A DNA stretch of 64,000 bases from Eledone cirrhosa (GCA_964016885.1 OZ024740.1:440572001-440636000); one strand, 5' to 3'; positions 27,878 through 62,087 are shown, counted from the first letter of the stretch. Notes: generated by a model not told the origin, from the sequence alone. Translations and numbers: made by a program.

Positions 27878-28130
27878 AACGAAGAATGATAACATTTCAA
27901 GCAAAGAGTTTAATTAGGTAATGACTTACAAATTTGTTTCAGTATATATTTAATATAATATTAATATATTTTGTAATATTATTAACTAATTATTATAATT
28001 AGCGCTTCAGGCTTTGTCTATATACTGAAACAAATTTGTAAGTCATTACCTAATTAAACTCTTTGCTTGAAATTTTATCACTCTTCGTTTTGAATTTCTC
28101 CTAAGTATTCAATACTCTGTTGAGAAATAC
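27878..28130 (+). mobile_element. PLE-like inverted-repeat remnant (arms ~27878-27949 and ~28019-28089) with HHR 3' half and tail hairpin
   Basis: Arms contain GAAA-caaatttg-TA-agtc; the right arm continues tttctc...ttgagaaa; flanked on the left by (CT)n at 27820-27877. Confidence 0.6.
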
Positions 28131-28294
28131 ATTTTACATAAACAGTCTTTGTACCATTTATACGGTATTAATTACTTATATTTATATATATATATATATA
28201 TATATATATAGCGTATGATTAGAACTGTGTTTATTATTAATATTTTAATGGATTTAATGAAAAATTTTAGGTGTTCATATATATATTCTAAAAA

Positions 28295-28352
28295 TGCGCG
28301 AAATCGTGAATCCGCGATAGTTGAACCGCCAAGTAGCGAGGTATCACTGTAT
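28295..28352 (-). mobile_element. Tigger/pogo-like DNA transposon end
   Basis: rc TA-CAGTGATACCTCGCTACTTGGCGGTTCAACTATCGCGGATTC; single end only. Confidence 0.5.
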
Positions 28353-28377
28353 ATATGTTTAAATATATAGTGTAGCT

Positions 28378-28842
28378 GTGATGTATCTCGCGTGTGAATC
28401 GAGACCTGTCACTGATTTTGGTGTCCCCACTGCCGATGTGAATGAACAACGCTGCACTTGTGAATTGGGTCTTGATGTTGCAGGCAGTTCATATACTTAC
28501 AATGATGCGGTCCCACAAGCTTGTTCACATTCATGTGCTAATAATCTAGATGGGAGTATTAAATTGGATGTGAAAGCAGCTTACCGGATGCGGAATCGGG
28601 AGAAGTTGAGACAAAAACAGGCCGATTATAGAGCTGTGAATTTTGCTAAATTAACACAAAAACAGGCCAAGTATAGATGTTCAAAACGGTATGAGTTGGC
28701 AAACAAGCAGGCCAAGTATAGATCTGCAAATTCAGCTATTATATCTCAAAAGCAAGCCGAGCGTAGAGCTTCTAAACGTACCGAGTTGGCTAAAGAGCAG
28801 ACCAAGTACAGATCTGCAAATATCTTATTGCACAAACAATAA
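28378..28842 (+). other. ORF with five basic 15-aa (45-bp) repeats; probably a transposon protein fragment (Helitron N-terminal-like)
   Basis: KQADYR/KQAKYR/KQAKYR/KQAERR/EQTKYR at 15-residue spacing; no catalytic motif. Confidence 0.35.
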
Positions 28843-56919: not shown

Positions 56920-59900
56920 CAATATATAAACAGTTTTATAAATAATTTTGACGTACCCTATTAGATGCGACTATTATTTTGGGAAGCTGTCTGGATAGTG
57001 AGATGTTTATAATTATTTTATTAGTTATAGTGTTAAGCACAGTTAGAAAAAAGACGAAGAGAAAGAAAAAACGGAGAGAGAGAAGGAGAGAGAAAAAGAA
57101 GGAGAGAGAGAAAAGGAATGTATGCAGAAAAGAAAGATATATATAAATAGATAGGAGGAAATGAAAAAGAAAGAAAAAAGAAAGAAATAAGAAAGACAAA
57201 AGAAAGCAACAGAGAGATAATAATTCATCATACAGATAGAGAAACTCAAGAGAGAGGAGGATATAGTGCTAACTTTACGTCATGTCAGATTAAGTTGAAT
57301 TAACAATTCATATGAAATGAATAATAATAATGTAAATATCAATATTCATGAATGAGACATATATATATAATATGAGAAAATAACATTGTTCAATAATGAC
57401 CATATGTTTAGTTTAAAACCTTGAGGTCAATATACCAAAATCTGAGTTAAAACCTTCAAAAAATACCCTACTTATAAAAATACGGATACACATATGTATA
57501 TATATATACACGCATATGCACGTTCAGAAAAAAGAGAAAAATTATGTCTACTCCAGTCAATAATATAGACATACAAATGATTTCACTTGATCACTTCTAT
57601 ATATTTCTTGTGTTATAAAATTTCACAGTATATATACATAAAAATACGATTAATATTCATGTCCTCATATACATGAATACCGTTCATGTATTTAATATTA
57701 TGCATATCTGCAACACACATCAACATATACACACACAACCATACATACACACACATATGTATAAATAAATATCTGCGTGAGTTTTCCAGCATCGTTATGC
57801 ACATATACAGACATATATACGAACACATAAATAAACTCTATAAACACATTATGTTAATACACACAAATGGCCTTTGTATAGAGATAATCAAATATCAATA
57901 TATTAATACAGAAATATCAAAGCATTAAATATCTTTAACACACTATAGAGTATCTCAAGTTAAAATAATATGTTTTATATATTTATAGAAATCTATCCTA
58001 CCTATATCTCAAACAAGATATTGCAAGGCTAGACATATGAAAGTTATTAGAAGCTATCAGAGTAAAAAAACAAATAAAAAAATAAAAATAATTTAAAAGA
58101 TTTAGAAGACCCAGTGATTCTACGGATGCCCTTATATTTAGTATAGAAATTTATCTTATGTAAATTTTATTTAATACATTGGGAGCATATACATTTTAGA
58201 GTAGTTTATTATATCCTTGTTTATATTTAGGAAGAAAGTTTAAAAAGAAAAAAGTGAAGAAATCTAATGATTTATCGTCAGGTTTCATATATTAACTAAA
58301 TTTCTTAATTAATTATACTACATTTTAAATTTATATTTATATTTAAACGTTGAGTTCAATCTATGTCTGCAGCAACTGAATAAATTGCTCCTTAAATTAA
58401 GGGAATTTTTGGACTTTAATATAAAGAATATTTCTTCTATTAAAAGGAATACCTTTTGAGACAATATTCCAAATCATCGAATATTTAACATTATCTCGTT
58501 TAAGGTGCCAGAGTAGGCTAGATAGCGAAGTTGAGGATTTTTTGTTTGGATCTGTGAAAGAATTCTTATAATTATTGAAGCGAAGTTTAAATTCTGTCGA
58601 GGTGGAACCAATATAGTTGAAAGAATTTAAATTAGTTTTAACATTACAATTGTACACTACATTTTTAGCTAAGCAGTTGTTATTTAACGGACAGTTAGAT
58701 TTATTTCTACAGTTACAGTTATTTAATTGAATATTGTTTGGGTTATTATTGGTATTTTGGTTAGGTTTTAAATACAGGGTAATACAACAAATTAAAAACT
58801 TACATAATTTACCTTACTTAAAGTTATGGAAGGGGACTGGTGAGGTTATTGAGTGGTTTAAAGAAATTAAATATAACTATAATAATAAGTTTATTCAGCT
58901 TGATATTGCTAACTACTATTCATCTATCACTCCTCATCTACTGAATAAGGCACTAAATTACGCATTTAAACATACCGACCTAACTAGCAAGGAAAACATT
59001 GATAGAATTTAATAACCAACTATGTACTAGGGTAGATAGAGATAATAATTTCGACATAACTATGGGATCATCTGACTCCGCTCAGGTAACGGACCTTGTG
59101 GGCCTATTTATAATTAATTCGCTACATAGAAAAATACCAGGTGTAACCGGATGATTATATCGTGATGACATGCTTTTACTTATTGAAAATAATAGCTGCG
59201 AACTAAATAGAAAAAGAAAACAAATTATACAATTTTTTAATTACCTTAATCTAAAAATAGAAATAGAGAATAACTATAGAATAGTCAATTTTCTGGATGT
59301 AACACTAAATCTCAACATATGTCTTCATTATCCATTTCACAAACTAAATGAGAACTTGAATTATGTCAATTTTAACTCTAATCACCCCAGATCTGTTAAA
59401 AATACTATAGTGAACTCTGTTCAAGAACGAATTTCAAGAATTTCATCTAATAAAAATATTTTTGATGAAAAAGCGCAGTATTACAATGAAGCGTTAGCTA
59501 GAGCAGGATATAGAGATAAAATTAAATACATCGATAATAATAAGCAAACTAACCATAATAATAACAATTTTAATTACGGTAACAACTTTAACAACTATAA
59601 TAGAAAACATTACAATAATTCCAAAAGCAGAAAAAGAAATAGAACTAGAAATATATTATGATTTGCCCCCCCTTTCTCACTAAATATTAAAACCCATATT
59701 GCTAAACTATTCTTTAATGCTCTTGACAAACGCTTCCCTAGAACACATAAATATCACTCAATTTTTAATAGACACTATAAAATTAACTTATTCGTCCACC
59801 AAAAATTTTGCAGAAAATATTAACAGAATTAATAATAGGAATTTAAAACCTAACCAAAATACCAATAATAACCCAAACAATATTCAATTAAATAACTGTA

Positions 59901-61723
59901 ACTGTAGAAATAAATCTAACTGTCCGTTAAATAACAACTGCTTAGCTAAAAATGTAGTGTACAATTGTAATGTTAAAACTAATTTAAATTCTTTCAACTA
60001 TATTGGTTCCACCTCGACAGAATTTAAACTTCGCTTCAATAATCATAAGAATTCTTTCACAGATCCAAACAAAAAATCCTCAACTTCGCTATCTAGCCTA
60101 CTCTGGCACCTTAAACGAGATAATGTTAAATATTCGATGATTTGGAATATTGTCTCAAAAGGTATTCCTTTTAATTCCTCATCAGAGAGTTGCGATCTTT
60201 GTATAGAAGAAATATTCTTTATATTAAAGTCCAAAAATTCCCTTAATTTAAGGAGCAATTTATTCAGTTGCTACAGACATAGATAGAACTCAACGTTTAA
60301 ATATAAATATAAATTTAAAATGTAGTATAATTAATTAAGAAATTTAGTTAATATATGAAACCTGACGATAAATCATTAGATTCCTTCACCTTTTTCTTTT
60401 TAAACTTTCTTCCTAAATATAAACAAGGATATAATAAATTACTCTAAAATGTATATGGTCCCAATGTATTAAATAAAATTTACGTAAGATAAATTTCTAT
60501 ACTAAATATAAGGGCATCCATAGAATCACTGGGTCTTCTAAATCTTTTAAATTATTTTTATTTTTTTATTTGTTTTTTTACTCTGATAGCTTCTAATAAC
60601 TTTCATATGTCTACCCTTGCAATATCTTGTTCGATAGATTTCTATAAATATATAAAACATTATTTTAACTTGAGATACTCTATAGTGTGTTAAAGATATT
60701 TAATGCTTTGATATTTCTGTATTAATATATTGATATTTGATTATCTCTATACAAAGGCCATTTGTGTGTATTAACATGCATATAAGAGGTTTATAGAGTT
60801 TATTTATGTGTTCGTATATATGTCTGTATATGTGCATAACGATGCTGGAAAACTCACGCAGATATTTATTTATACATATGTGTGTGTATGTATGGTTGTG
60901 TGTGTATATGTTGATGTGTGTTGCAGATATGCATAATATTAAATACATGAACGGTATTCATGTATATGAGGACATGAATATTAATCGTATTTTTATGTAT
61001 ATATACTGTGAAATTTTTATAACACAAGAAATGTATAGAAGTGATCAAGTGAAATCATTTGTATGTCTATATTATTGACTGAAGTAGACATAATTTTTCT
61101 CTTTTTTCTGAACGTACATATGCGTGTATATATATATACATATGTGTATCCGTATTTTTATAAGTAGGGTATTTTTTGAAGGTTTTAACTCAGATTTTGG
61201 TATATTGACCTCAAGGTTTTAAACTAAACATAGGGTCATTATTGAACAATGTTATTTTCTCATATTATATATCTATGTCTCATTCATGAATATTGATATT
61301 TACATTTTTTATTATTCATTTCATATGAATTGTTAATTCAACTTAATATGACATGACATAAAGTTATCACTATATCCTCCTCTCTATATATAGTACTTCC
61401 TTTCTCTTGAGTTTCTCTATCTGTATGATGAATTATTAACTATCTGTTGCTTTCTTTTGTCTTTCTTCTTTCTTTCTTTTTTCTTTCTTTTTCATTTCCT
61501 CCTAACTATTTATATATATCTTTCTTTTCTGCATACATTCGTTTTCTCTCTCTCTCCTTCTTTTTCTCCGTTTTTTCTTTCTCTCCGTCTTTTTTCTAAC
61601 TGTGCTTAACACTATAACTAATAAAATAATTATAAACATCTCACTATCCAGACAGCTTCCAAAAATAATGGTCGCATCTAATAGGGTACGTCAAAATTAT
61701 TTATAAAACTGTTTTATATATTG

Positions 61724-61784
61724 TATTTTGTCTGATGAAGGCATACCATATTTTAATTTGGTATCCCTGAAATATAATGAAATA
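61724..61784 (+). ncRNA. HHR of the PLE 4 3' pLTR, 4-nt deletion in stem III
   Basis: tattttgt-CTGATGA-aggcataccatattttaatttggtatccct-GAAA-ta-TA-atgaaata. Confidence 0.72.
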
Positions 61785-62087
61785 AATATGGTTTTATAAA
61801 TATAGTTTCCATTTATTTAATATCGTATATCTACTCCAAAAACTTGTCGAGTGCTTTATATCAGTTATAAAATATTTACTTGTTGTATCCCAACAATTTT
61901 AAATAGAACTTTTGCATATATATATATATATATATATTTTATATATGTGTGTATATATGTATATATATATATATATATATATATATATATATATATATAT
62001 ATATATATATATATATATATATATATATATATATATATGTGTGTATATATGTATGTGTGTGTGTATGTGTGTATATATATGTATACA

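Follow-up and report, generated by a model that had tools for sequence, protein, structure and literature searches.

Introduction

In Penelope-like elements (PLEs), one of the two inverted pseudo-long terminal repeats (pLTRs) may carry a tail, an optional extension of 30-40 bp (PMC3846280; PMC8557442; what we say of these and other cited papers refers to their openly available parts). The choice of the start site and the one-armed tail have been open questions since the tail was described, and in vitro work of 2024 revealed two starts and no rule. In Poseidon from Anolis carolinensis (PAc), both strands are cut and extended by a protein that uses two internal starts bounding the tail and is predicted to act as a dimer (PMC11167929). 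The Hydra clade of PLEs with a C-terminal endonuclease (EN) is marked by RWK and DKT motifs, a CxCX5C linker, the absence of CCHH, a hammerhead in the pLTR, insertion into (TA)n, and a length usually below 3 kb (PMC8557442). Hammerheads in pLTRs have been published (PMC4209133; PMC7761336), a circular PLE template made by the hammerhead has been proposed (PMC4209133), and non-LTR retrozymes have been presented as PLE derivatives (bioRxiv 10.64898/2026.07.22.740005). Here we analysed 64,000 nucleotides (nt) of one strand from Eledone cirrhosa (GCA_964016885.1 OZ024740.1:440572001-440636000; genome 3.0 Gb), hereafter the window, with positions counted from its start and 27,878-62,087 as the region under study. 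From 27.8 kb onward, the window is a nest of PLEs, each inserted into the (TA)n tracts of another.

An earlier note on this sequence had pointed to a short CTC/GAG stem at the opening of the tails of six families and had read it as a cis signal. We find that this reading is supported in a refined form: the signal is a bulged hairpin present in two copies, one per end, and it is a real, clade-wide cis element of the Hydra PLEs. The layout of the elements is pLTR with hammerhead, short end, hairpin 1, tail, long end, hairpin 2, 5' untranslated region (UTR) and ATG. Copies end about 7-9 nt 5' of either hairpin, and each hairpin probably binds the protein and sets one start of the reverse transcriptase (RT).

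Results

Search without the motif

The pool for this search comprised 320 loci (1.94 Mb) and the window, and is enriched in PLE nests because 127 of its 140 ten-kb stretches were centred on matches to the window families. Names of the form L### denote loci pooled from the same genome or from metagenome (foreign) relatives. Inverted pairs were selected without reference to the motif, by the criterion that one arm should run into (TA)n while its partner continues, and this gave 363 pairs in 63 clusters, noise included. In the strict test, a CTC had to lie 2-13 nt past the short end and to close a bulged hairpin having three or more upper pairs; 24 of the 63 cluster representatives passed, compared with 0.32 in shuffled sequences (maximum 2, 300 shuffles). 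Sliding the 2-13 nt interval by 12, 24 and 36 nt left 0, 0 and 1 representatives, and the next-best pair of 3-mers gave 5. Among the 27 clusters with at least two pairs, 16 carried such a hairpin in at least half of their members, and 8 (clusters 4, 6, 10, 11, 16, 21, 23 and 25) were without the motif, clusters 16 and 23 having GAGC-like remnants. Two motif-less clusters enclose RT frames without a match to the PLE 3 frame of the window, one of them with DKG and GxKF. Other PLE-type families thus lack the motif; it is not general to PLE tails, and we rejected it as a property of all of them. Two further tailed inverted pairs in the window (49442/51846 and 31441/32414) also lack it. When the first 30 genome matches of each family were read, copies either stopped a few bases before the stem, running into (TA)n, or read through it, and the read-through copies ended at a second fixed point.

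A covarying bulged hairpin

The CTC/GAG stem is predicted to be the lower helix of a bulged RNA hairpin, in which R-CUC is followed by an upper stem-loop, a 2-nt U-Y bulge and GAG-Y. The bulge explains the T(T/C)GAG that the earlier note had seen on the 3' side, and that reading is correct in all six families on the strand of the open reading frame (ORF) and hammerhead (the minus strand for both copies of family A, the second copy of family B and family D). For counting pairs, 28 families were chosen solely by the position of CTC and the first TnGAG, with no pairing demanded. The first flanking pair was Watson-Crick in 25 of the 28 families (A-T 13, G-C 11, T-A 1; shuffled 12.2), and upper pairs 1, 2 and 3 were Watson-Crick in 24, 21 and 19 (shuffled 13.9, 14.2 and 7.8). 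A fifth lower pair was found in 4 of 28 families only; as the second flanking pair does not covary, the lower helix is 4 bp. Thus, the proposed covariation of the flanking pairs holds for the first and fails for the second, and of the proposed stems of 4-6 bp the 4-bp helix stands, as part of the bulged hairpin, while a lower stem of 5-6 bp was rejected (in foreign hairpins the second flanking pair was found in 26 of 86, shuffled 31). The bulge letters were TT in 15, TC in 5, TA in 5 and TG in 3 families, and the 2-nt bulge register had 67 of 84 positions paired, with 9-20 for registers 0, 1, 3 and 4. The 22 families outside the window's six gave the same pairing picture, the gap within the hairpin varied from 11 to 73 nt, and a double change in the core, GTTC/GAAC, occurred in one tail cluster and one foreign locus. 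Pair counts on one further alignment rest on hand-picked rows and are not our main test.

In upper pairs 1-3, G-U combinations outnumbered A-C by 25 to 11 (p 0.03; the two sets gave 16:6 and 9:5, neither significant alone), an excess that favours folding of the sense RNA strand. Among the 150 matches listed of 203 Rfam matches in the window, we found no hammerhead and no hairpin family; the listed ones were microsatellite-driven microRNA models and other chance matches, below the gathering score.

Elements and hairpins of the window

The window holds four broken RT/EN frames (PLE 1-4) and the following features, with tails of about 70-175 nt.

27878-28176 (+): inverted pLTR pair of the 28-kb element; short arm 27878-~27980 (-), tailed long arm 28090-28176
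28095-28127 (+): hairpin 1 of the 28-kb element; one contiguous upper pair only, TT bulge
34064-34268 (+): family B inverted pair; short end 34064 (-), 3' half of hammerhead 34148-34170, tail 34191-34268
34196-34219 (+): hairpin 1 of family B; ACTC, upper TACT/AGTA, TT bulge, GAGT
38201-38948 (-): family D inverted pair; tail 38201-38338 (-), hammerhead 38407-38448 (-), short arm 38823-38948 (+)
38276-38335 (-): hairpin 1 of family D; upper CGTAA/TTACG, TT bulge
40635-42216 (-): family A inverted pair; tail 40635-40701 (-), hammerhead 40740-40762 (-), short-arm end 42216 (+)
40677-40697 (-): hairpin 1 of family A, copy 1 (A1); upper TGC/GTA, TT bulge
42318-42341 (-): hairpin 1 of family B, copy 2 (B2); short partner arm ends near 42455 (+)
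42682-42751 (-): hairpin 1 in the tail (42579-42761) of a minus-strand Hydra element, cluster 26
43364-45358 (-): PLE 1, broken Hydra-type RT/EN frames
46443-48061 (+): PLE 2, broken Hydra-type RT/EN frames of the family A protein
48411-48431 (-): hairpin 1 of family A, copy 2 (A2); TC bulge, third upper pair lost, hammerhead 48474-48496 (-)
51893-51975 (-): short inverted arm of PLE 3, ending in (TA)n at 51893
51977-51994 (+): 3' half of PLE 3 hairpin 2; the 5' end of the long arm stops inside hairpin 2, about one unit from the start
52000-54141 (+): Hydra-type ORF of PLE 3, one interrupting stop
55083-55105 (+): predicted hammerhead-like core of the PLE 3 pLTR, variant core CAGAAGA
55155-55200 (+): hairpin 1 of PLE 3, in tail 55153-55238; TC bulge, two contiguous upper pairs
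55673-55708 (-): hairpin 1 of a seventh, non-coding family (cluster 19), left arm
55748-55783 (+): hairpin 1 of the cluster 19 family, right arm; CTC changed to CTG in this copy
55871-55890 (+): hairpin 2 of the cluster 19 family; the unit continues to a short end near 56408
56814-61914 (+): PLE 4 inverted pair; short-arm end 56814 (-), broken ORF 59155-60286
61732-61772 and 61831-61914 (+): hammerhead and tail of PLE 4
61833-61852 (+): hairpin 1 of PLE 4; upper CAA/TTG, TC bulge

All eight stems of the earlier note are where it had placed them, with the letters it gave and loops of 11-52 nt. Its observation that the partner arm ends just before the stem was borne out as well, with stops 2-5 nt upstream, into (TA)n or (GA)n; for A2 no inverted short partner of its own could be identified, the short arm at 45860 being on the same strand. 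Its list lacked the hairpins at 42682-42751 (-), 55673-55708 (-) and 55748-55783 (+) and the second-type hairpins at 51977-51994 and 55871-55890. The 28-kb element was rejected as an independent family, because 27 of 30 genome copies have the same flanks (not visible in 2, different in 1) and it is taken as a single insertion that a larger repeat carries along. The palindrome at 55657-55799 was considered as a two-tailed exception and rejected, as its right arm continues through hairpin 2 to the short end. The motif is present in non-coding members: the unit at 55.7-56.4 kb has no long frame and keeps both hairpins, as does family D, which has no PLE frame after hairpin 2 in three of three copies.

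By exact-pattern search, the genome contains 28,397 matches to the family A anchor (including relatives with a shared hammerhead), 2,223 to B, 2,084 to D, 20,248 to PLE 3, 28,104 to PLE 4 and 436 to the 28-kb element. In L191, L021 and L184, the family A pLTR is followed by the same protein as that of PLE 2. The larger repeat that carries the 28-kb PLE as cargo has a few hundred copies (window ~26300-28900; L001, L006, L007, L151-L180), begins with a short palindrome (26324-26378) and also carries an old family-A-like hammerhead (27150-27205). In L261 (4000-5060), a family A ORF ends and the body and pLTR of family D follow at once, without an intervening (TA)n; the junction is either a nested insertion or a sign that D derives from, or travels with, the family A protein.

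Fixed ends and arm pairing

In copies running past the tail into the ORF, a second R-CTC...TY-GAG hairpin lies directly after the long end, about 40-60 nt upstream of the ATG. It was seen in PLE 3 (whole in L210, L282 and L228), B (L253, L234), PLE 4 (L285), D (L279, L085, L280) and clusters 12, 13, 19, 20 and 42. Some PLE 3 copies of hairpin 2 are closed by C-UUCG-G (L282:4313-4330), a stable RNA tetraloop, and others by C-CUCG-G. Arm junctions are blurred by TA microhomology and are given as intervals. The short-arm interval overlapped the position 7-9 nt before the CTC of hairpin 1 in 98 of 123 mapped pairs, and the long-arm interval overlapped the position 7-9 nt before hairpin 2 in 171 of 189 mapped ends. 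Scattered endpoints had been named as a refutation of the signal; 111 of the 123 mapped short ends lie 2-12 nt 5' of CTC.

Of 190 head-to-head pairs, 163 could be classified: 155 (95%) combined a short with a long arm, 5 were short with short and 3 long with long, while 81 short-long pairs would be expected under independent arms. In these 155 pairs the tail is on one arm only, as had been claimed. Because the 155 pairs have 116 distinct arm-to-arm spans, most of them arose separately. Microhomology of 1-5 nt of TA was common at the junctions of B, PLE 3 and PLE 4, and some junctions had none. Of 50 foreign rows, 33 had TAT or ATA in the 7 nt preceding the hairpin (18.5 when shuffled). Among 40 PLE 3 copies with a start codon, 21 extend upstream past hairpin 2 into tail or pLTR, and 19 have their 5' end within -21 to +22 of hairpin 2, at 5.3 times the rate further up, in an interval chosen post hoc. 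By eye, no tandem same-strand matches one unit apart were found in the first 100 of 772 PLE 3 places or in 94 family A places. Among the sequencing runs listed for the PLE 3 region, none was of RNA. Contigs of four runs were compared; in the best of these runs, loose ends into (TA)n lay at 4219 and 4307, and since the assembly may derive from that run, they were not counted as support. At two places (G000:C4:279229136-279229932 and C3:263668191-263668475), the family A start-codon region is repeated every 191 bp and 261 bp, and these repeats are possible mini tandem units with the hairpin region.

Hydra-clade membership and relatives

The predicted ORFs linked to the hairpins show the marks of Hydra-clade PLEs. 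L282 and L191 encode uninterrupted single ORFs of 712 and 758 amino acids with RT and, at the C-terminus, a GIY-YIG domain, and the YRDD motif and C-terminal EN are seen in the alignment. Pfam matched GIY-YIG in one of nine window fragments (E 2e-4, just under the Pfam cut-off) and found no family in the other eight. RWR is present in L282, L191, L243 and L285 and RWK in L229, with DKT in all of these; the CxCX5C linker occurs in all four window elements and in L282, L191, L243, L299, L254 and L261. By eye, there is no CxxC between the GIY- and YIG-like motifs, that is, CCHH is absent, while C-x-x-C before the E and C-x-H near the end are seen, the latter altered in the PLE 4 window copy. A canonical hammerhead, CTGANGA...GAAA, is found in A, D, PLE 4 and B (L235); the PLE 3 core is a one-letter variant, and no hammerhead was found in the cluster 19 unit. 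The genome copies have (TA)n as their insertion target, and the PLE 3 unit of about 3.3 kb (51977-55238) is slightly above the usual length. The PLE 3 core reads CAGAAGA, not CUGANGA; the genome matches a search pattern lying immediately downstream of it about 20,000 times, and the core recurs in most of the 30 loci that were read.

A full-length query returned 1,201 relatives, of which the 120 listed had 39-57% identity and included one from Solemya velum; a profile search gave 76 metagenome loci, and no relatives were found among viral contigs. By eye, the hammerhead of L381, a profile-retrieved locus, agrees letter for letter with the Penelope-1_NV row in File S2 (PMC8557442); L381 carries both hairpins. 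When only the CTC/GAG core was demanded, with no upper pairing, 48 of 58 metagenome upstream regions had one hairpin and 33 had two (shuffled 7.4 and 0.8); a stricter count gave 36 and 16 of 55. In the 86 distinct foreign hairpins, upper pairs 1-3 were Watson-Crick in 71/85, 49/77 and 35/56 (shuffled 40, 22 and 14), and the 3' side reads GAG-CAC-T-N-T. Foreign loci with exactly two hairpins space them by 55-83 nt. Copy ends in foreign loci fell 0-6 shared bases before CTC in 21 of 46 rows; the other rows, set aside, were 23 microsatellite matches to one locus, one row measured to a wrong CTC and one whose end lay at 15 nt. In a FastTree tree built on the RT of 44 loci, hairpin 1 had a Watson-Crick upper pair 1 in 35 of 35, and the changes of this pair numbered 6 and 6 per base and 6 per pair, every inferred change being double. 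The covariation test was thus passed in families of this genome, in foreign hairpins and on the RT tree.

A covariance model built from 50 foreign hairpins gave, as the top 7 of 8 window matches, B twice, PLE 3, PLE 4, A twice and a PLE 3 hairpin-2 remnant; it found six of the eight stems of the earlier note and missed D and the 28-kb element. In the published consensus sequences (File S7, PMC8557442, compared by eye), hairpin 1 is present in the tails of Hydra-2_Amil and Hydra-2_Ajap, and both hairpins at the 5' end of Hydra-1_Ajap. The clade-wide scope claimed earlier is supported by these and by the metagenome relatives.

Other elements of the window

Clusters 11 (window 51847-51880) and 10 (L282, L292, L302), which are motif-negative, show GTGT-NNN-ACAC and then CTC about 10 nt after the short end, and no hammerhead core was found within 400 nt upstream (0/7 each); the element is possibly the start signal of another PLE clade. 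Clusters 4 (window 39503-40531) and 25 are small hammerhead units whose tail runs straight into their own unit start. They have no CTC/GAG hairpin, and close to where the tail ends there is a long, perfect hairpin rich in A and T; with the tail joined directly to the unit start, they resemble non-LTR retrozymes. The inverted repeat at 49442-51846 (2.4 kb, non-coding) has arms 90-98% identical, each with a 124-bp tandem, and a palindrome at its centre (50530-50612); one of the arms bears a tail of 40 nt. A 44-bp satellite with about 407 copies fills 8637-26320, with a 5.6-kb higher-order duplication in self-comparison, and a second short satellite array (32404-33396) lies inside the inverted-repeat element 31441/32414. 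Other non-LTR retrotransposon frames with endonuclease and RT motifs (87-3247, 4110-6869 and 62160-63828) are unrelated to the hairpins.

Discussion

We propose that the GIY-YIG domain would cut both strands of (TA)n, and that two RT molecules, one per hairpin, would extend the two target 3' ends. The two cDNAs, primed on opposite strands, would then be joined head to head through microhomology, at a point that varies, and the tail, as the stretch between the two start sites with hairpin 1, would come to lie on one arm only. Hairpin 2 is situated past the long end, so that no single genomic copy can provide it on the downstream side of the ORF; either a unit cut by the hammerhead and circularised would serve as template, or there would be a template jump, and we give about even chances to one of these as the source of hairpin 2. 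The PLE 3 copies running past hairpin 2 fit a circular template (PMC4209133) or a template jump. Non-coding units that keep both hairpins could be moved in trans, as passengers. More tentatively, and with somewhat more doubt than belief, we suggest that the hairpin of about 25 nt may serve as a ruler, two copies on a circular RNA docking two RT-endonucleases whose starts would be 7-9 nt off and on opposite strands. If true, the ruler rule would yield the tail, the inverted repeat, the more-than-unit copies and the trans-mobilisation of RNAs with a hairpin pair. From the sequence, we infer both RT initiation in preference to cutting and mobilisation in trans.

Several observations weigh against the initiation reading. 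PLE 3 and the 28-kb element have the plain stem and fail the strict test for a 3-bp upper stem. Family A deviates in several ways: its hairpin 2 has a GCAC/GTGC stem without a bulge, though the long end is sharp, 9 of 26 short ends lie 13-18 nt before CTC, and 5' ends do not pile up at hairpin 2 (1 of 19). The short ends of family D spread across 1-12 nt. Mapping failed for 32 of the 155 short ends and, against a single reference, for 116 of the 305 long ones, and for long ends it allowed small shifts only. Fold stability is ordinary (z -1.2 to +0.7); of the 10 stretches folded, 5 (D, PLE 4, PLE 3, the 28-kb element and PLE 1) form the hairpin at minimum energy and A, B, cluster 19 hairpin 1 and both hairpin-2 stretches do not, so a protein would be needed to hold the fold. 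Only 4 tree-independent contrasts were available (4/4, p 0.125). Hydra-1_Crog is deviant, and Hydra-1_Amil and Hydra-1_Obim show no clear hairpin, leaving three of the six consensus sequences of File S7 with the motif (PMC8557442). The start-site role is a prediction, as the Hydra elements are known here from sequence alone. For the Anolis element, hammerhead cutting is dispensable in vitro, which speaks against the circular-template step (PMC11167929).

The same fixed spacing would be predicted if the hairpins directed a cut 7-9 nt on their 5' side, by GIY-YIG on DNA or cDNA or by a ribonuclease on RNA, with copying starting at the cut end. The tail has been ascribed to endonuclease resolution of an intermediate (PMC8557442), and the D. 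virilis tail has been cited as required for endonuclease recognition (in PMC11167929). However, separately processed RNAs would pair randomly, yet nearly all classified pairs are short with long; the Anolis protein starts internally on uncut RNA (PMC11167929), and the covarying helices and the G-U excess point to single-stranded sense RNA, not duplex DNA. We consider cutting unlikely. Still less likely is an antisense RNA template on which the hairpins are stop signals, much as the template boundary element is in telomerase RNA: an RT running toward the pLTR end would halt with 7-9 nt left to a bound hairpin. PLE RTs are sister to telomerase (PMC8557442), and self-priming on an antisense template has been argued from head-to-head palindromes (PMC3846280), but the G-U bias favours a sense-strand fold, the R-CUC...UY-GAG reading shares its strand with the hammerheads and the ORF, the opposite copy ends are variable as with sense-template priming, and a leaky stop does not predict that short arms pair with long ones.

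Both hairpins lie 5' of the ORF in full-length copies, which would also suit a service to translation or RNA stability in the 5' UTR, with ends nearby because a bound protein blocks or exposes the RNA. As the explanation of the ends we hold this to be highly improbable, because both ends keep their 7-9 nt despite a hairpin gap of 11-73 nt and a spacing of 55-83 nt, and non-coding families retain both hairpins; as a second role, the hairpins may also serve translation. It is true that 4-bp stems are common, that families A and B share tail sequence and that the folds are not unusually stable, as chance or shared ancestry without function would have it. Nevertheless, the hairpin was found in 24 of 63 representatives versus 0.32 when shuffled and holds beyond the window's six families, in 22 others, and in relatives whose proteins are about 40% identical. 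The blind search, the covariation among families, the foreign hairpins and the RT tree together refute this account, to which we give almost no credence. Regardless of these alternatives, initiation at two protein-bound hairpins remains our preferred reading.

The hairpin rule would explain the long-puzzling one-sided tails, and a twice-repeated, covarying signal with fixed spacing makes start-site choice directly testable. The hairpins exactly delimit the members of a clade whose copies in the genome number tens of thousands, serve as a marker for non-coding members, and provide a way into how the nearest relatives of telomerase RT recognise RNA. They could possibly be a portable tag for inserting RNA cargo at (TA)n.

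Comparison with known systems

The E. cirrhosa elements share with known systems some features and not others. L1 twin priming, like the two starts proposed here, gives an inversion by two primings, but its second site is not fixed and its 3' end is not duplicated. The template boundary stem of telomerase is a protein-bound stem that sets the position of an RT, as the hairpins here probably do, and it stops the RT. Hepatitis B epsilon primes on protein, from the bulge itself, whereas the start here would lie outside the hairpin.

Like the published PLE tail, the tail here is an extension beyond the pLTR on one arm of a head-to-head pair with a variable 5' junction; unlike it, the tail is about 70-175 nt long and bounded by two copies of one hairpin (PMC3846280; PMC8557442). 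PAc starts at two sites that bound its tail, and copies here end at two fixed sites with the tail between them; both have an AT-rich target, and in the proposed mechanism the cutting and extension of both strands by two protein molecules would be common to both as well. PAc belongs to another clade and starts inside one AC-rich stem loop within the ORF, whereas the ends here, known from sequence only, are in TA-rich non-coding DNA upstream of the ATG, each 5' of its own hairpin; in the PAc RNA letters of Fig. S1, read by eye, there is no CUC...GAG hairpin (PMC11167929). The available text of the Hydra clade paper describes no cis signal, though three of its six new consensus sequences contain the hairpin (PMC8557442). 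With the circular template and the retrozymes, our elements share more-than-unit copies and non-coding hammerhead units related to pLTRs; the accessible parts of those papers name no start-site signal, and the circular RNA is here our inference (PMC4209133; bioRxiv 10.64898/2026.07.22.740005). Searches of the openly available literature found no paper describing the hairpin or a two-hairpin rule. The tail, internal initiation, pLTR hammerheads and retrozymes were known; the second hairpin and the spacing rule for the two ends are new here.

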